Origin: Planctomycetota bacterium
Lineage (GTDB): Bacteria; Planctomycetota; UBA11346
NCBI GenBank assembly: GCA_038231435.1
Contig: JBBRLJ010000055.1
Coordinates: 1 to 27,969 of the forward strand
Direction of reading: 5' to 3'
DNA: 27,969 nt
In this document: positions 1 through 27,912 of the stretch, piece after piece
Layout: the number at the start of each line of letters is the position of its first letter
Position numbering within the stretch: the first letter of the stretch is position 1
Made by a program: the position numbers and the translations under genes
The notes under the pieces: generated by a model
What the model saw: only the letters and a program-made list of their open reading frames with translations
The model's database searches: none
What the model was told of the DNA's origin: nothing

Positions 1-250
1 GATCTCGCCGGAAGCCGGCGAGATCGTCGGCGGATGGGCTACGCCCATTGTATCCGCCGACCGCCCCTCGGCGCCCGGCGGTTTTCGTTCAGGGGCTTCG
101 CCCCTACGGCCCTGCGGGCCTACCCCACGGGCTTTGTCGGGGCTCGATCTCGCCGGAAGCCGGCGAGATCGTCGGCGGATGGGCTACGCCCATTGTATCC
201 GCCGACCGCCCCTCGGCGCCCGCCCCATCGCTCCGCGATGGGGCCCCCGG
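1..250 (+). repeat. Tandem dimer of multi-hairpin REP/BIME-like repeat (unit A truncated at window start 1-77, linker 78-90, unit B 91-222, terminal hairpin 222-244)
   Basis: 1-77 is identical to 146-222 (145-bp period). Hairpins: AGGGGC-ttc-GCCCCT, GGCCC-tgc-GGGCC, GATCTCGCCGG-aag-CCGGCGAGATC, GTCGGCGGA-TGGGC-tac-GCCCA-ttgta-TCCGCCGAC, GCCCCATCGC-tcc-GCGATGGGGC. The same family occurs at 27611-27912. Confidence 0.92.
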
Positions 251-288: not shown

Positions 289-312
289 TGACGCGAGCGA
301 AGCAAGCATGAC

Positions 313-432
313 GGCCGCCGAGGCCTGGTTTGCGTGAACAATGGGCGTAGCCCATCACGCAAACTTTCTGGCCGCCCGGCGGACAGAAAGAGGGACGACA
401 AAGGCCGTGGGGGCCCGGGGGCGGAGCCCCCG
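313..432 (-). repeat. Diverged inverted copy of the multi-hairpin repeat
   Basis: The reverse complement reads CGGGGGC-tcc-GCCCCCG..CCCCACGGCCTTTGTCG..CTTTCTG(stem)CAGAAAG-TTTGCGTGA-TGGGCTACGCCCATTGT-TCACGCAAA..CCTCGGCG, with the same motif order as the + strand units. Confidence 0.85.
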
Positions 433-437
433 CACCA

Positions 438-2567
438 TTAGGCTCTTGCGCACACCACCACCCGGCCGGTGAATGCGCCCATGCGCAGGATCAGCAGCTC
501 GCCGTCGATCACGGCGTCGTCGGGCGCGGCGTTCAACCCATCGATGATGCGCCAATCGCCTGCGGGCAGGCGCACCACGACGCTCTCAGCGGGCGCGTCG
601 GCGAAGGCGTGGGCGACCACCAGCAGGCTCCGTCCGTCCTCGGCCAGGCGCACCACCGCCTGCCAACCGGTCGGGTGGCGGTAGCTGGCGCCGCCGATGC
701 GCTCGATGCGCGAGCTTCCGCGATCGATGATCGGCGCCACGCGCTGGTAGAGCGCCTGCGCCTGCGCGACCACCGCCCACTGCTCGGCGGAGAGCGTGGT
801 GATGTCGCCCGAGATCGCCATGCGCCCGAGAAAGGTCGCCGCCAGGCTGTAGTGCATTCGGCGCGCAGTGTCCGCCGCCTTCAGCACCGCCCAAATCTGC
901 GATTGGCGCGGCAGGATCAGGCGGTGGAGATTCGCCGCCACGATCGGGATCTCGACCAGCTCGTGCGCATCCGAGAACGATGCCTGAGCGGACAGAGCCA
1001 TGAACGACGGCTCCAGGCGGTGTCCGCCCGAGGCGCAGTTCTCGATCACCAGCTCGGGAAGCTCGGCGCGCAGGCGAGCGAAGAACCGCTGCGTACCTTC
1101 GAGGCTCAGGCGCAGGCCCTCGCCAAGCGACTCGGGATGGTCGGCACCGATGCCGATGCATTCGTTGTAGTCGACCTTGATGTAGCCGACGCCGCAGGAA
1201 CGCAGCAGGCCGATGACGCGCTCGGCGAGGTAGTCGTGCACCCAGGGATCCGCCATGTTCCAGAAGCGCCGGCCAGAGGGCTCGATCGGCACGCCGTCAC
1301 GCGTCAGCTGGTGCGCTGTCTGATGCCATGCGTCGCTGGTCGGGCCCATGGTCTCGAATTCGAACCACAGACCGGGGATCAACCCGCGCGCGCGGATCTC
1401 GGCACAGGTATGGGCCAGACCCTTCGGGAACAGCTTCGGGCTGGGCAGCCAGTCACCTGAGCTCTCGCCCCAGTTGCGGCCTTCCTGCTGATACCAGCCG
1501 GCGTCGATGACCAGGAACTTGGTCGCGGTTCCGCGCAGGCGGTCGCTGATCGCCATGAGCAGGTCGTGGCTGGGATTGCCCCAGGTGGTGCAGTATTCAT
1601 TGCAGACGATCGGCAGCGCAGCCTCGACGGCTGGGAGCCGCTCGAGTCCCCGCCGCTGCACGAGGGTCAGACGCGCGCACAGATCATCGATGTCCCCGTG
1701 CGCGCAGGCGAGGATCGCCTCGGGACCGGCGAAGGATTCGCCGGGCGCGAGCCGCTTCATCCAGTGGCCGGATTCGCGGTCGGCGAGGCCTCCCGAGATG
1801 TTCACGAAGTCGTCCTTGCGGTAGAGCTCGAGCTGCCACGAGCCCGGCACCGCCAACATGGCGCCCCACATCACCCCGGCCACGGTGTCCTCGACGCCGA
1901 CGAACGGGAACCAGCCGCGCACCGGCATCGAGCCGGCCTGGCCGAAGCGTTCATTGAGCATGCAGTGCCCGGTCCACGAGCGCTCGAGGTGCAGCGCCTC
2001 GAAGGGCACCGCCTCGTGGCGGCCTTCCGATGACCACGCTGAACGGAAACGGTGCGCGTGCAGCCGTTCCGGAGCGTCGTCGGCGGCGACTGGCGAGATG
2101 TGTCCGAGCGAGAAGCTGGTGAGCATCTCCAGGGTGACTGGCTGGTCGCCGCCATTGGTCAGCTCGGTGCGCACCGTGAAGGCGTTCTCGGGATCGCGAT
2201 GTTCGAGACGGTGGGAGACCCGCATGCCCCGCGCGCCGGCGAGCACGGTGGTGATCACGGTAGAGCCACCATTGCGCACCGCCGTCTGCGCCACATGGCG
2301 CAGCGCGTGCATCGCCGGCGAGCCGCGCAGCGATCGGCCTTGCGAAAATCCGCCGGAATACGCGTCGCCGACAAGCTTGTAGTGGGCGAGGCCGTCAACG
2401 TTCCAGGCCTTGGGCCACGCCGCCGGAGGCAAGCCGCTCTCGCGATGGTCGGGTATGCGTCCGCGCAGCGCGGCAGGGATCAGACACAGACCAACGCGGC
2501 CTTCTTCCTCGAGGTAGCGCACCGCGGTATCGCCCAATACGTACTCGGAGAGGATGGCGCCGGGCAT
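438..2567 (-). CDS. Alpha-galactosidase, glycoside hydrolase family 36 (melibiase-like), ~709 aa
   Basis: GH36 motifs LVIDAGWY, GLWFEFE, YIKVDYN (nucleophile Asp), IENCASGGHR, SFSDAHE. Start moved to ATG 2567 (MPGAILSEY) after an AAAGG SD; the upstream ORF extension overlaps the GIY-YIG gene. Confidence 0.9.
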   Translation of the reverse strand: MPGAILSEYVLGDTAVRYLEEEGRVGLCLIPAALRGRIPDHRESGLPPAAWPKAWNVDGLAHYKLVGDAYSGGFSQGRSLRGSPAMHALRHVAQTAVRNGGSTVITTVLAGARGMRVSHRLEHRDPENAFTVRTELTNGGDQPVTLEMLTSFSLGHISPVAADDAPERLHAHRFRSAWSSEGRHEAVPFEALHLERSWTGHCMLNERFGQAGSMPVRGWFPFVGVEDTVAGVMWGAMLAVPGSWQLELYRKDDFVNISGGLADRESGHWMKRLAPGESFAGPEAILACAHGDIDDLCARLTLVQRRGLERLPAVEAALPIVCNEYCTTWGNPSHDLLMAISDRLRGTATKFLVIDAGWYQQEGRNWGESSGDWLPSPKLFPKGLAHTCAEIRARGLIPGLWFEFETMGPTSDAWHQTAHQLTRDGVPIEPSGRRFWNMADPWVHDYLAERVIGLLRSCGVGYIKVDYNECIGIGADHPESLGEGLRLSLEGTQRFFARLRAELPELVIENCASGGHRLEPSFMALSAQASFSDAHELVEIPIVAANLHRLILPRQSQIWAVLKAADTARRMHYSLAATFLGRMAISGDITTLSAEQWAVVAQAQALYQRVAPIIDRGSSRIERIGGASYRHPTGWQAVVRLAEDGRSLLVVAHAFADAPAESVVVRLPAGDWRIIDGLNAAPDDAVIDGELLILRMGAFTGRVVVCARA

Positions 2568-2714
2568 GCTGGCCTTTCGCTGTCGCGCGCTCACGATCCT
2601 TGGAGCACGTCCAAGACCCTCGCACGCTCCCCAGATGTAGCGCCGGCGTGCGGACGTTCCATCGCGGCGGGCACGCGGATTGCGGGACCTCGCTGGAGCG
2701 GGTACGCTACGGTG

Positions 2715-3020
2715 ATGCCCGCCGCCTTCGTCTACCTGATGCGCTGCCGCGACGGATCGCTGTACTGCGGTTGGACGACCGATCCAAAAGCCCGCGAGGC
2801 CACCCACAACAGCGGCCGGGGCGCCGCCTACACGCGTTCGCGGCGGCCGGTGCGCCTGGTCTACCTCGAAAGGCTGCGCGACCGCAGCGCCGCGCTCAAG
2901 CGCGAATGGGCGATCAAGCAGCTGCCGCGACAAGCAAAGCTGCTGCTGGTCGCGCGCGCGAAGAGCTCTTCCGCGCTCACTGCCGAAAAATCCCAACAGC
3001 GGCGCCGCCGTGCCGGCTGA
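2715..3020 (+). CDS. GIY-YIG nuclease family protein (UPF0213/YazA-like), 101 aa
   Basis: FVYLMRCRDGSLYCGWTTD..R..THNSGRGAAYTRSRRPVRLVYLE..SAALKREWAIKQLPR is the C-terminal part of ORF 2052-3020. ATG 2715 is preceded by a -10-like TACGCT. Confidence 0.9.
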   Translation: MPAAFVYLMRCRDGSLYCGWTTDPKAREATHNSGRGAAYTRSRRPVRLVYLERLRDRSAALKREWAIKQLPRQAKLLLVARAKSSSALTAEKSQQRRRRAG

Positions 3021-3236: not shown

Positions 3237-4100
3237 TTACGCCGTCTTCGCGGCGGCTGTGAGCACGGCCTGGGCGCGGGCCTCGCGCGCGGTCTGCTTG
3301 CGGTCCTGCCACGGCACGTGCCGGCGCGTGGCGCGCGGGATGCCGGGTCGGTGATAGCCGATGGTGTAGGCGTAGCGGCTCTGGTCGGTGGTGTTCGGCC
3401 CGGCGTAGTGGAGCGTCCGGCAGTGGAAAATCACCGCGCCGCCCGCGGCGAGCGGCACCGGCACCGCGGCGCGGGTATCGGCGACCAGGGTTTCGAGCCC
3501 GTGCACGCGCACGTCGTTGCCGATCGACTGGTGCTCGAGGATCTCGCCGCGGTGGCTGCCGGGAACGAACCACAGGCAGCCATTCTCGACCGTCGCGCGC
3601 TGGAGCGGCATCCAGATGCTCAGGCCGCGCGCGTCGCTCATCGGATCCCAGTAGGCCTCGTCCTGGTGCCAAGGCGTGGTCTTGCCATAGCGGGCGGGTT
3701 TCAGGATCGCATGGTCGCCGCCCCAGCGGACCTCCGATATCGGGCCATCGCCGAGCACCTGCCGCGACAGCGCCAGGCCGTTGGCGTGGTAGAGCGTCTC
3801 GCGCAGCTCGGGAGCCTTCGCCGACGGGGCGAGGATCTGCGGCAGACCCTCAGGCTTGCCGTCCTCATCGGCGCCGGCGAGGTCGAACTGCTCGCCGCGC
3901 TCGCGGCCGGCTCGTGCGGCGAACAGGCGCTCGAAGATCGCGTGCAGGCGCTCCACTTCGTCATCGCCGGTGATGCGCTCGATGCGCAGGAAGCCGTCGC
4001 GGTGGAATGCGGCGACCTGCTCGGCGGAGAACTCCACGTCCGCCTGGACGACTTCGCCAGTGGAGACAGCATTGGAGTCGGCGGTGGCGGTGGCGGTCAT
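3237..4100 (-). CDS. Phytanoyl-CoA dioxygenase (PhyH) family Fe(II)/2-oxoglutarate dioxygenase
   Basis: AFHRDGFL, TPWHQDEAYW (HxD), NGCLWFVPGSH, IFHCRTLHYAGPN, SRYAY; GGAG SD before the ATG. Confidence 0.92.
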   Translation of the reverse strand: MTATATADSNAVSTGEVVQADVEFSAEQVAAFHRDGFLRIERITGDDEVERLHAIFERLFAARAGRERGEQFDLAGADEDGKPEGLPQILAPSAKAPELRETLYHANGLALSRQVLGDGPISEVRWGGDHAILKPARYGKTTPWHQDEAYWDPMSDARGLSIWMPLQRATVENGCLWFVPGSHRGEILEHQSIGNDVRVHGLETLVADTRAAVPVPLAAGGAVIFHCRTLHYAGPNTTDQSRYAYTIGYHRPGIPRATRRHVPWQDRKQTAREARAQAVLTAAAKTA

Positions 4101-4218
4101 GGGTGCTCCCGATGCCGGCCATCCTACCGCCTTCCGCGCGCGGGCGCGTACCGCCTTGTGCAGCGGAGAATGCCTTACATCCGCCGTCAGCGCGGGCGGA
4201 CGGGGGATTCACCACGGT

Positions 4219-5037
4219 CTATGGAGCGACGCGGGTGGAACTCGCCGCGTTCTGCGCCTCCAACCAGGGCATGTCGCGCGGCGTGGTGCGCGGCACGCCC
4301 GGGCGCCAGAATCCTACGATGTAGGCGTAGCGCTGGACCCCCGTGCGGTTGGGACCCGCGTAGTGCAGCGTGCGCACGTGATGGATCACCGCGCCACCCG
4401 CCGGCAGCGGCACCGGCACCGCCGCGCGCGTGTCGGCGACCAGCGTCTCGAGACCGTGCACACGCGGATCGCCACCGATCGGCTGGTGCATGAGCACGCC
4501 CAGGCGATGGCTGCCCGGCACGAACCACATGCAGCCGTTGTCGACGGTGGCCTCCTGGAGCGCGAGCCAGGTGCTGCAGCTGCGCGCATCCTGCATCGGC
4601 ACCGGCCAGTACGCCTCGTCCTGGTGCCACGGGGTGGCGGCGCCGTGGCGGGCGGGCTTGAGGATGGCGTGATCGCCACCACGGCCGAGTTCGTCGGCCG
4701 GGCCACCGAGCAGCTGAAGCGACGCCGCGCGAGCGTGCTCGTGGAAGCGGCCATGCGCCAGCTCTGGCGCGAGCTTGGAGGGCTCGAGGATCTGCGGCAG
4801 GCCCTCGGCCTTGCCGTCCACGTCAACCGCCGAGAGATCGAAATGGGCACCACGCTCACGGCCGGCGCGCTCGGCGAACAGGCGCTCGAGCACCAGGCGC
4901 AACCGCGCGACCTCATCGGCGTCGACCAGGCGCGGGATGGCGAGAAAGCCGTCGCGCTCGAAGGCGGTGATCTGTTCGTCAGTCAGGATCGGCGTGGTGG
5001 ATGGCAGAGCTGGTTCGCGGGCTGCGGCAACGGTCAT
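4219..5037 (-). CDS. PhyH family Fe(II)/2-oxoglutarate dioxygenase (tandem paralogue of 3237-4100)
   Basis: AFERDGFL, TPWHQDEAYW, NGCMWFVPGSH, HHVRTLHYAGPN. Start at ATG 5037 (MTVAAARE) after GGAG; the rest of ORF 4219-6033 is antisense to the AraC gene. Confidence 0.92.
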   Translation of the reverse strand: MTVAAAREPALPSTTPILTDEQITAFERDGFLAIPRLVDADEVARLRLVLERLFAERAGRERGAHFDLSAVDVDGKAEGLPQILEPSKLAPELAHGRFHEHARAASLQLLGGPADELGRGGDHAILKPARHGAATPWHQDEAYWPVPMQDARSCSTWLALQEATVDNGCMWFVPGSHRLGVLMHQPIGGDPRVHGLETLVADTRAAVPVPLPAGGAVIHHVRTLHYAGPNRTGVQRYAYIVGFWRPGVPRTTPRDMPWLEAQNAASSTRVAP

Positions 5038-7926: not shown

Positions 7927-7947
7927 TGTTTGTGGGACGCGCCTGGA

Positions 7948-7976
7948 TGTACAGGTGAAAAAAGCACGGATATAAT
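7948..7976 (+). promoter_or_regulatory. Sigma70-type promoter for the PhyH gene at 8017
   Basis: TGTACA (7948-7953), 17-nt spacer, TATAAT (7971-7976), in an AT-rich divergent intergenic region. Confidence 0.6.
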
Positions 7977-8016
7977 CCCGATCAGCGCCACCACCCTTCA
8001 TCACCGAGGCACGATC

Positions 8017-8883
8017 ATGCAGGCAGCTCTCGCGACCATGCAGCCCACCCGGCCATCCCCTCCGGCAACGACTGGCACGCCAGCCGTGGCGAATGGCCAT
8101 GCCGCCCAGAGTTCGCCCAACATCTCGCCAACGAAGTCGCCAACAAATGACCAGTTGGTCGCCTTCGCCAGAGACGGCTTCCTGTCGTGGGGCCCGTTGC
8201 TGGCGGGCTCAGAGATCGAGGCGCTGCGCGCCGAATACGACCGCGTCTTCGCCGAGGCGCACGGCAGCGATACCTACCGCAACCTGTCGGTGGGCGACGA
8301 AGCTCGCGCCGACGCGAAGCGCTCGGGACGGCAGATGCTGCAGATCATGCAGATGTGTGAGCGTAGCCTGGCCTTCCGCCGGCTCCTCTACGACGAGCGC
8401 ATCCTCGCGGTGGTGCGCGCGATCATCGGCCCGAACATCATGCTCTTCCACGACCAGGCACTGTTCAAACCGGCGCGGACCGGCGGCGCGGTGTCCTGGC
8501 ACCAGGACAACGGCTACTGGAAATGCGCGCCCGCCAATCTCGTCAGCTGCTGGCTCACCCTCGACGACGTCGTCACCGAGAACGGCGCCATGCAGGTGAT
8601 CCCTGGATCGCACCTCGCGCCCGCCCAGCACGGGCAGGATCCGGGCACCAGCGCACTGCTGCAAGTCCAGGCGATCCCGGTTGAGAAGGCGGTATCGATC
8701 CCCCTGCCGGCCGGAGGGTGCATGTTCCATCACTGCCAAACGCTGCATTACACCGCGCCCAACGACACCGAGCGCCAGCGTCGAGCTCTGGCCATCCATT
8801 ACATGCCGGTCGGAACCACCGACAGCACCGGCAACATCATGCGCGTCAGCTGGGCGCGCCCGCAGGTCTGCTCGTCGATGTGA
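8017..8883 (+). CDS. PhyH family Fe(II)/2-oxoglutarate dioxygenase (more distant paralogue)
   Basis: AFARDGFL, FHDQALFKPARTGGAVSWHQDNGYW, NGAMQVIPGSH, FHHCQTLHYTAPN, RRALAIHY. GAGG SD before ATG 8017 (ATG 8038 is an alternative). Confidence 0.92.
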   Translation: MQAALATMQPTRPSPPATTGTPAVANGHAAQSSPNISPTKSPTNDQLVAFARDGFLSWGPLLAGSEIEALRAEYDRVFAEAHGSDTYRNLSVGDEARADAKRSGRQMLQIMQMCERSLAFRRLLYDERILAVVRAIIGPNIMLFHDQALFKPARTGGAVSWHQDNGYWKCAPANLVSCWLTLDDVVTENGAMQVIPGSHLAPAQHGQDPGTSALLQVQAIPVEKAVSIPLPAGGCMFHHCQTLHYTAPNDTERQRRALAIHYMPVGTTDSTGNIMRVSWARPQVCSSM

Positions 8884-26688: not shown

Positions 26689-27612
26689 ATGCGCATCATG
26701 TCTCCGATCGCCGTGGGCTTCCTCTATGCCGCTGGTGTGCTCCGTGCCGCCAGCGCCAACGCAGCGGACGCGCCGGCCCCAGCGCCAGCACCCTCGAAGC
26801 CACATGCCGCCTCCCAGTGGAGCCATTCCGGTCGCGCCGGGGCCTTCGTCACCAACGTCTACACCGAAGGCGCAGGAAGCTCGCGCGATCCGGCGATCGG
26901 CGGCGCGCGCGAATCGACCGCGTTCTTGCTCACCCTGGACGCGGCACTGCTCTGGCGGGGTGGCCCCGAATCCAGTGAGCAGAACCTACGCTTGCGCTAC
27001 GGGCGCGTACGCGTCGAAGGCGTCGACTGGATCGAAAACCAGGACGAGGCCCACTACGACGGCGTGGTCCGATACTCGTTCGCGAAACCCCACTTCGTCT
27101 ATGGAGCATGGGGCACGGACTCGGTGTTCACCAGTCCGGTCGATCACCAGGCGTTCGATCCGGTCACTGCGCGTGTCAGCGCCGGCTATGGGCAATTGTA
27201 CGAGGGCCTGCTCCTCCAGGCTGATCACGAAGCCAAGGACCATGCCGGCGAGGATCGCCTCGAGGTCCGCCTCGGCGTGCGCGCCCAGAAGCGCTGGAGC
27301 CGACACGACACCGCCTTCCAGGATCGCATCGAAGTGGGCCCCGAGGGCTACGCGCGCTACGACCGTCCCATCGACCCGTCCATCCGCTTTTTCGCGCAGT
27401 ACGAGGTCTTCAGCGAGTTCGACGACATCAAGCACGTGACCCAGCTCGTCACCGCTGGCCTGACCGCGGCGCTCGGCACCTACGTCACGCTCGAGCTTGC
27501 GTTCCGCGCCTACTTCGAATCCCATCCACACGAGGCTCCCGCAGGCTCCACGGGCTACGACTCCTGGAGCGTGCGCCAGGATACGCTCATCGGTCTGACG
27601 TATTCCTTCTAG
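26689..27612 (+). CDS. Putative outer-membrane beta-barrel protein (DUF481/DUF3078-like)
   Basis: Signal peptide ending ASA-NA, amphipathic strands (EQNLRLRYG, SAGYG, LEVRLG), C-terminal IGLTYSF barrel signature. Confidence 0.72.
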   Translation: MRIMSPIAVGFLYAAGVLRAASANAADAPAPAPAPSKPHAASQWSHSGRAGAFVTNVYTEGAGSSRDPAIGGARESTAFLLTLDAALLWRGGPESSEQNLRLRYGRVRVEGVDWIENQDEAHYDGVVRYSFAKPHFVYGAWGTDSVFTSPVDHQAFDPVTARVSAGYGQLYEGLLLQADHEAKDHAGEDRLEVRLGVRAQKRWSRHDTAFQDRIEVGPEGYARYDRPIDPSIRFFAQYEVFSEFDDIKHVTQLVTAGLTAALGTYVTLELAFRAYFESHPHEAPAGSTGYDSWSVRQDTLIGLTYSF

Positions 27613-27912
27613 GGGCTCCGCCCCTACGGCCTATCGGCCTACCCCACGGGCTTTGTCGGGGCTCGAATTCGCCGGGGGCCGGCCAATTCGTGGGCGGATC
27701 GGCTACGCCGATTGTATCCGCCCACCGCCCCTCGGCGCCCGGCTGATGTTCAGGGGCTCCGCCCCTACGGCCCTGGCGGGCCTACCCCACGGGCTTTGTC
27801 GGGGCTCGAATTCGCCGGGGGCCGGCGAATTCGTCGGCGGATCGGCTACGCCGATTGTATCCGCCGACCACCCCTCGGCGCCCGCCCCATCGCGGAGCGA
27901 CGGGGCCCCCGG
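27611..27912 (+). repeat. Tandem dimer of multi-hairpin REP/BIME-like repeat (unit A 27611-27741, linker, unit B 27752-27884, terminal hairpin 27884-27906)
   Basis: Same motif series as 1-250, with compensatory stem changes (GAATTC..GAATTC, ATCGGC-tac-GCCGAT, GTGGGCGGA..TCCGCCCAC); begins inside the TAG stop of the barrel gene. Confidence 0.93.

Follow-up and report, generated by a model that had tools for sequence, protein, structure and literature searches.

A small mobile repeat with a three-way junction fold at gene ends in an uncultured class of Planctomycetota

RESULTS

We describe a small mobile repeat of an uncultured class of Planctomycetota, a real and well-supported family whose copies follow stop codons and tRNA genes and keep a branched fold while the letters of their stems change. 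Copies are examined below in the window, a stretch of 27,969 nucleotides that constitutes the entire contig C55 of a 5.2-Mb draft genome (G000). The literature searched, thin on subscription journals and limited to main texts, held no account of the family, which is apparently undescribed; REP lists in the supplements of PMC3733652 might bear on its novelty. It is very probable that the element is mobile and that its fold is under selection. As a whole, the explanation that we prefer, in which the repeat is non-autonomous and mobile and selection acts on its fold at the copying step, is tentative and falls a little short of probable.

Copies in the window

The window holds four occurrences of the anchor pattern, against 0.01 expected. 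Its features are as follows (subfamilies A and B; P1a, P1c, P2, and P3 are helices or arms of the fold).

312-431, minus strand: stems and loops of a full copy of subfamily B
438..2567, minus strand: alpha-galactosidase gene (GH36/melibiase; ORF list, Pfam PF02065)
440-438, minus strand: TAA stop of the alpha-galactosidase gene, directly adjoining the B copy
432..437, minus strand: T-containing leader of the B copy, from stop codon to first hairpin (leader profile of 76 B copies)
408..431, minus strand: 5' hairpin GGGGGC-TCC-GCCCCC, then a second C-run; GGA loop on the opposite strand (loop census)
312..407, minus strand: B core, a three-way junction of 96 nt (covariance model match, 80.6 bits)
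403..407, minus strand: 5' arm of the outer helix P1a, paired with 316-312 (covariation in 3 of 5 pairs; 97% of cells paired)
397..402, minus strand: conserved internal-loop strand TTTGTC, facing TCGGC at 321-317 (column counts)
397..402 and 317-321, opposite strand: the same internal loop, read as GACAAA / GCCGA with tandem GA
392..396, minus strand: 5' arm of the inner closing helix P1c, paired with 326-322 (4 of 4 pairs covary; G-C/C-G closing pair)
364..390, minus strand: arm P2, a freely variable hairpin (29 different perfect outer 6-mers in 177 parsed copies)
329..363, minus strand: arm P3, with lower stem, TTGT bulge (341-338), and apical hairpin TGGGC-TAC-GCCCA (354-342), whose loop is GTA on the opposite strand
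317..326, minus strand: 3' arm of P1c and loop strand TCGGC
312..316, minus strand: 3' arm of P1a
1..77, plus strand: A copy, cut off by the contig start
81..243, plus strand: A copy (leader 81-90, two 5' hairpins 91-120, core 128-222, 3' hairpin 223-243)
27610..27741, plus strand: A copy with core 27647-27741 and a first hairpin that overlaps the TAG stop of a DUF481 gene (27610-27612)
27742..27905, plus strand: second A copy, in tandem, with 3' hairpin; core 27790-27884

An initial annotation of the B copy had reported two central stems and a bulged TGGGC-TAC-GCCCA-TTGT hairpin, and these are present as described, on the minus strand at 312-431. Its view that the stems are "entirely different" from those of the other copies was overstated: the core is identical to that of the neighboring A copy in 69 of 96 columns, so the stems have been relettered rather than wholly replaced. 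Nor is this a lone stem-swapped inverted variant: the genome has 87 full B copies, this one included, and its nearest relative among them, on contig C23, is 97% identical. It is inverted relative to the A copies because it is attached to the stop of the convergent alpha-galactosidase gene. Its inner helix P1c is damaged, with 2 of 5 pairs broken (TCCC/AGGC, compared with TCCT/AGGA in the B majority, 22 of 53 parsed), and the CCU/AGG closing pairs once proposed for it represent a shifted 3-bp register. The minus strand folds better than shuffled sequences (z of −3.9 as RNA and −5.0 as DNA, matched by 0 of 200 shuffles), and the plus strand folds there too (z of −4.5 and −6.0). Equal folding of both strands with no conserved loop motifs had been named in advance as a sign of ordinary palindromic decay; both do fold far beyond shuffles, but the loop letters are conserved and the closing helix is supported. 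At this locus, four DNA sequencing runs yielded no empty site, though many other copies were present in them.

Between the A and B copies, positions 258-287 hold two tandem 14-nt purine/pyrimidine-skewed units that are unrelated to the junction. By our reading of the translations, three phytanoyl-CoA dioxygenase-like ORFs lie at 3237-4991 and 7930-8883 amid several AraC-type regulators; two of the three are a 955-bp tandem duplication.

Copy number, subfamilies, and host range

An iterated DNA profile search of G000 returned 305 hits, 263 of them full length (163 A, 87 B, and 13 unassigned); all hits together form 189 clusters, which are single copies, same-type tandem runs, or inverted A-B pairs. 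Inverted pairs are biased toward unlike partners, with 32 A-B pairs against 5 A-A and 2 B-B (p 2e-5), an excess that may simply reflect instability or failed assembly of long perfect inversions. Among 177 parsed copies, 89 have five perfect helices; these represent 45 haplotypes, 13 of which occur on at least two contigs, pointing to many donors.

Further copies occur in related genomes. A covariance model detected them in 36 of 48 genomes of the Planctomycetota family and a broader model in 37 of the same 48, hereafter the class; under strict filters, the covariance model found none in 135 genomes of other families in our sample of the phylum. Matches per genome within the class range from 0 to at least 87, and 11 of the 48 genomes have no copy. 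In a species collection, the exact pattern gave at least 88 matches in at least 78 stretches, nearly all titled Planctomycetota; among the matches listed, two contigs titled Burkholderiales resemble G000 types and may be misbinned. Viral contigs gave 0 matches, and Rfam gave only chance hits (ar7, E 1.4; Acido-Lenti-1, E 0.11 and 0.22), all below gathering scores.

Elsewhere in the class, genome G006 carries 16 tandem copies of alternating subtypes after a tRNA-Leu gene (L121:4305-6745) and four copies within a large tRNA gene array (L124).

A three-armed junction supported by covariation

The junction is three-armed and closed by two helices, inner P1c and outer P1a, an architecture that is strongly supported. 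In 54 distinct copies with helices placed via sequence anchors, 96% of 1,075 cells are paired, both partners vary in 14 of 20 pairs, and the covariation score is 0.505, compared with 0.128 for shuffles and at most 0.068 for slid partners, counts that kinship among copies inflates. Covarying pairs include all 4 in P1c and 3 of 5 in P1a. G000 alone, in the 177 full copies that parsed (86 of 263 did not), has 16 different perfect P1c 4-mers besides the 29 P2 6-mers. RNAalifold, run on the copies, predicted the junction unaided. The closing multi-way junction proposed earlier therefore exists, with covariation behind it, but its helices are not those named: they are an inner helix of 4 to 5 bp and an outer one of 5 bp, CGGCC/GGCCG (407-403 with 316-312), the best supported of all, which had been overlooked.

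The proposed UGUCG/CGGCG pairing with its two wobbles did not hold up. It was invariant in our first set, where the search pattern itself fixed those columns; in 39 more divergent copies, this register lacks covariation and is broken at both ends in 8 rows. In these same copies, covariation links the final G of TTTGTCG to the initial C of CTCGGC (30 G-C, 7 C-G), although all 7 C-G rows come from one genome, G019, and are probably one event. What results is a 6 × 5 internal loop, in which the most constant letters, TC on each side, read as tandem GA on the opposite strand. According to RNAalifold, another U-G register can close part of this loop on the written strand as RNA, without covariation support. 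Loop letters are 95 to 99% fixed in an unbiased profile alignment, and the same loop and junction are kept in the most divergent genera. The earlier conclusion that fold and loop motifs, rather than stem sequence, are conserved is thus borne out by covariation, fixed loop letters, and the RNAalifold junction; recognition of the putative motif by a protein is plausible.

Copies adjoin stop codons and tRNA ends

Using gene ends from a crude in-house ORF caller (3,570 genes), we found that 104 of 187 scorable runs in G000 start −3 to 15 nt from a same-strand stop; another 5 have the stop inside the element, 8 start at 16 to 30 nt, and 70 have no nearby stop. Random intergenic sites reach 4.6% and T-rich sites just 8 to 10%, so a preference for T-runs is rejected as the sole cause of the tie to stop codons. 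In other genomes and metagenomes, 132 copies were scorable, of which 60 adjoin a stop and 5 the end of a tRNA. Of the 57 tRNA-type genes of G000, 4 directly precede a same-strand copy, and the sole copy of genome G016 follows tRNA-Ala. TAG accounts for 45 of 89 element-associated stops, compared with 781 of 3,569 genes, as expected if the T-rich leader provides the stop. Over 76 B copies, the leader has no fixed tetranucleotide.

A replichore bias was considered and dropped: a per-copy count of 30/81 seemed skewed, and with tandem copies merged and local skew used, the count is 96/202 (p 0.53). In relatives, runs of a 6- to 7-nt tandem repeat lie right after stop codons (L181, L205, L207, and L479), a second class of gene-end repeat.

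Filled and empty sites, junctions, and ends

Orthologous loci differ in the presence of the repeat. A copy directly follows the leuA stop in 3 of 30 loci (G000, G004, and G172), with two different types represented; leuA of G002, from the same genus, has none, and the LeuA proteins with a copy are a few residues shorter than their relatives without. After tRNA-Pro(tgg), 4 of 12 loci have a full copy and one more has a truncated copy. A 20-kb block common to G000 and G002 shows reciprocal presence and absence of copies. Comparison with G002 or G001 identified four genes in which the element is fused at the old stop or within about ten codons of it; in two of them, the reading frame enters the 5' hairpins and ends at a new stop. 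Copies often take the place of a gene's last codons and bring a stop with them.

The 5' junction is fixed, the 3' end is ragged, and tandem arrays are formed. Truncated A copies have lost the 3' end in 12 cases and the 5' end in 1 (counted by eye). Truncated B copies show weak polarity, 7 versus 5; four of the 5 are cut by another copy, and the near evenness arises because other copies cut into B. Six partial copies are joined to the next leader at T-runs. Around 49 solitary copies, we found no target duplication (direct flank match of 5.18, compared with 5.09 in the control) and no terminal inverted repeats (inverted match of 4.90, compared with 4.96); direct matches exceeded 8 nt in 2 of the 49, both partial tandem copies.

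The repeat is itself a target. All 10 observed ends of an ISL3-family insertion sequence (Pfam PF01610) lie inside B copies, between P2 and P3, at the G000 contig ends C6, C7, C8, C11, C18, C20, C60, C64, C70, and C85 (L175:1-130). The insertion has an 8-base A-rich site on both sides, and 47 of 64 such sites in G000 fall in repeat copies; target supply may explain the placement.

Loop letters point to the antisense strand as DNA

The initial annotation took the wobbles as a sign of one functional strand. In the helices, we counted 34 G-T and 27 A-C mismatches, a near-even split (p 0.44), so wobbles cannot name the strand; the loop letters favor the opposite strand, as DNA. On the written strand, 209 of 224 parsed copies have TNC as the apical loop and 1 has GNA; for the 5' hairpin loop, the counts among 234 are 163 TNC, 51 TNT, and 4 GNA. 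Read on the opposite strand, TNC becomes C(GNA)G and TNT becomes C(ANA)G, and that strand is also rich in A at the internal loop, the bulge, and the tail. Within GCNNNGC, only GNA forms a very stable DNA mini-hairpin, the RNA counterparts being weaker, and such mini-hairpins are found at primase sites and N4 promoters (available part of PMC13037366). The GNA loops thus make antisense single-stranded DNA (ssDNA) the likelier form to fold, and we consider antisense DNA probably the folded strand. Several points count against this assignment. In subfamily A, the 3' hairpin mostly shows its GNA loop on the strand as written (35 instances of GGA, in a census that counted registers twice and has one faulty row), G019 has a different loop in place of the apical GNA hairpin, and Watson-Crick covariation is blind to strand. 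In addition, sense orientation puts the written strand in every host transcript, for which an RNA role would directly account.

Search for the mover

We searched for a mover among Y1 transposases, reverse transcriptases, integron integrases, and GIY-YIG nucleases, and found none in these classes. Since the drafts break at the repeat, an autonomous partner could be unassembled. Y1 transposases are present in 42 of 48 genomes, and of 47 Y1 loci scanned in draft genomes of the class, 0 are flanked by copies and 2 have one copy nearby. The single Y1 gene of G000 lies beside an integrase, 5 kb from any copy. The RAYT model NF047646 scored below cutoff in G000, and the IS91-type Y2 search gave no match, as did its control. 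RVT_1 has no match in the high-copy drafts G000, G002, G020, G181, and G182 (79 to 88% complete) and is present in 9 of 11 genomes without copies, so in these drafts the presence of a reverse transcriptase fails to track copy number, and it is an unlikely mover. We rejected the integron integrase, which occurs in 4 of 5 genomes tested but is unlinked to copies: the covariance model found none in six integron regions (70 kb), and the canonical attC of G000 is unrelated. GIY-YIG genes occur in 48 of 48 genomes and therefore do not discriminate. No mobile gene recurs among the neighbors of copies in G000, other genomes, or metagenome loci, and no degenerate copies lie beside an uncharacterized gene.

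Three loci were recorded along the way. Contig C28 of G000 (L001:685-2736) carries a gene for a 348-aa Y1 transposase-like protein, adjoined by a tyrosine integrase gene and two tRNA genes; the arrangement is probably that of an integrated element. At a contig end, G000:C17:106635-108675 (L267), an integron integrase scores above the family cutoff, and after it come a cassette gene of low GC and a canonical attC. In the window, 2714-3020 is a small GIY-YIG nuclease gene, which is present across the class and which the Pfam scan did not report.

DISCUSSION

How the repeat may be copied

In the mechanism that we prefer, the working form would be antisense ssDNA folded into the three-way junction and capped by GNA mini-hairpins; its internal loop would hold the tandem GA, and both its bulges and its 3' tail would be rich in A. 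The tail could anneal to a T-rich end of the sense strand that becomes accessible at the point where transcription, or translation of the transcript, stops; a DNA polymerase would then copy the element inwards from the leader, halting at variable points or repeating. Junction and loops would serve as the landing site of an enzyme. If only copies with an intact junction were copied, compensatory change together with neutral-looking mismatches would be explained. This priming route, an A-rich tail on T-rich 3' ends, is doubtful as a specific proposal. Its boldest form is improbable: a selfish DNA fold without a transposase of its own, whose folded antisense strand recruits host machinery for priming or repair and is added by copying to transcription units at their 3' ends, changing stops and C-termini across the class.

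The closest competitor, although unlikely, is a sense-strand RNA element at 3' ends (which a host protein would bind as a stabilizer, a terminator, or a processing signal), kept at gene ends as useful, as reported for ERIC, NEMIS, and YPAL. It would suit the sense orientation at stops and tRNA ends, the folding of the written strand as RNA (z of −3.9), and the recurrence of a B-type copy after tRNA-Pro(tgg) in several genera, others having an ordinary terminator there; MITE transcripts (from miniature inverted-repeat transposable elements) also regulate neighboring mRNA (available text of PMC2229807). But the loops are UNC triloops rather than UNCG or GNRA, G-U pairs are not in excess, 11 of 48 class genomes and most orthologous genes lack a copy, and Rfam holds no match. 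The outer fold is not a hairpin plus U-run either: on the sense strand, the T-run precedes the hairpin, and an intrinsic terminator search gave one weak internal match. Movement as a REP/REPIN-like ssDNA substrate by an HUH tyrosine transposase (RAYT or TnpA of IS200/IS605), with T-rich targets overlapping stop codons, is distinctly unlikely. The tetranucleotide GTAG does precede both 5' hairpins on the antisense strand in subfamily A of G000, clusters are tandem and inverted with A-B pairs in excess (32 versus 5 and 2), targets are not duplicated, and Y1 transposases are common (42 of 48 genomes). Against this, B lacks GTAG, as do many A-type copies in other genomes, no tetranucleotide is fixed in the leader, and the Y1 genes, including the lone one in G000, mostly stand apart from the copies (0 of 47 loci flanked, 2 with a copy nearby).

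Target-primed reverse transcription leaves a fixed T-run junction, a ragged far end, and tandem copies. All of these are seen here, as a SINE-like retroelement with an antisense RNA and an A-rich tail, reverse transcribed into T-rich nicks, would predict; the distribution of RVT_1 (no match in the five high-copy drafts, 79 to 88% complete, but present in 9 of 11 copy-less genomes), the absence of target duplication, and the DNA-type loops make it very improbable. Least credible, and largely refuted already, is ordinary palindromic decay, in which template switching copies one arm onto the other and keeps pairing without selection. Even G-T and A-C mismatches agree with it, as does the 3' hairpin loop of subfamily A, which flips orientation between copies. 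However, nested long-range helices show covariation on either side of asymmetric loops that arm copying would erase and whose letters are 95 to 99% fixed, and the most divergent genera retain the same loop and junction.

Comparison with known repeats

The family resembles integron attC sites, bcr1, REP/BIME, and MITE-like repeats in outline and fails the defining tests of each. An attC site lies just after a stop codon, its bottom strand folds, its stems are free, its unpaired bases are fixed, and its end is helix-loop-helix-branched, a working similar in outline. But RYYYAAC/GTTRRRY boxes occur upstream of 0 and downstream of 3 of 49 solitary copies, and the Planctomycetota repeat follows housekeeping genes and tRNAs, leaves six integron regions without a copy, and is unrelated to the true attC of G000.

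The bcr1 repeat of the Bacillus cereus group is about 155 bp long, patchy among relatives, and branched, with compensatory changes; it is flanked by 5-bp direct repeats and interpreted as an RNA fold (available part of PMC3184786). Patchy distribution and a branched fold kept by compensatory changes are found in our family too. Unlike bcr1, it has no duplication, and it has a three-way junction with a fixed internal loop, GNA loops, and a strict tie to gene 3' ends; the sequences were compared via Rfam only. REP, BIME, and REPIN sequences, with RAYT, are extragenic and downstream of coding regions and form tandem or inverted clusters of two types without target duplication (accessible sections of PMC3733652). 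Our repeat likewise forms extragenic clusters and inverted pairs downstream of genes, but its branched fold of 95 to 165 nt (core 95 nt) contrasts with their hairpin of 20 to 40 bp, their GTAG or CGTC tag is not conserved here (GTAG occurs in some A-type copies only), and we found no flanked RAYT or tyrosine transposase.

ERIC, YPAL, NEMIS, RUP, RPE, and CIR are small, structured, multicopy MITE-like repeats that adjoin or fuse with open reading frames (PMC2229807, in the part available). Our family is also multicopy, noncoding, and patchy among relatives, but it lacks terminal inverted repeats and TA duplication, has a fixed 5' junction and a ragged 3' end, and fuses only to the last codons of genes. 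Finally, the phage G4 origin, ssiA of RSF1010, and N4 promoters have ssDNA GNA mini-hairpins read by primases or polymerases (available part of PMC13037366), like those of the putative ssDNA form here. Those, however, are single-copy origins or promoters on mobile replicons, and viral contigs gave no match to our repeat.

The family bears on two questions: by what means small bacterial repeats lacking terminal repeats spread, and what makes them crowd at stop codons. It renders them testable through its natural variants, numbering in the hundreds, in which free stems can be told from fixed loops, through a strand signature that points to DNA, and through orthologous filled and empty sites. The repeat also shapes genomes, altering protein ends and attracting the ISL3 element, and with a copy at 83 of 216 contig ends in G000, it leaves assemblies of this uncultured class fragmented.
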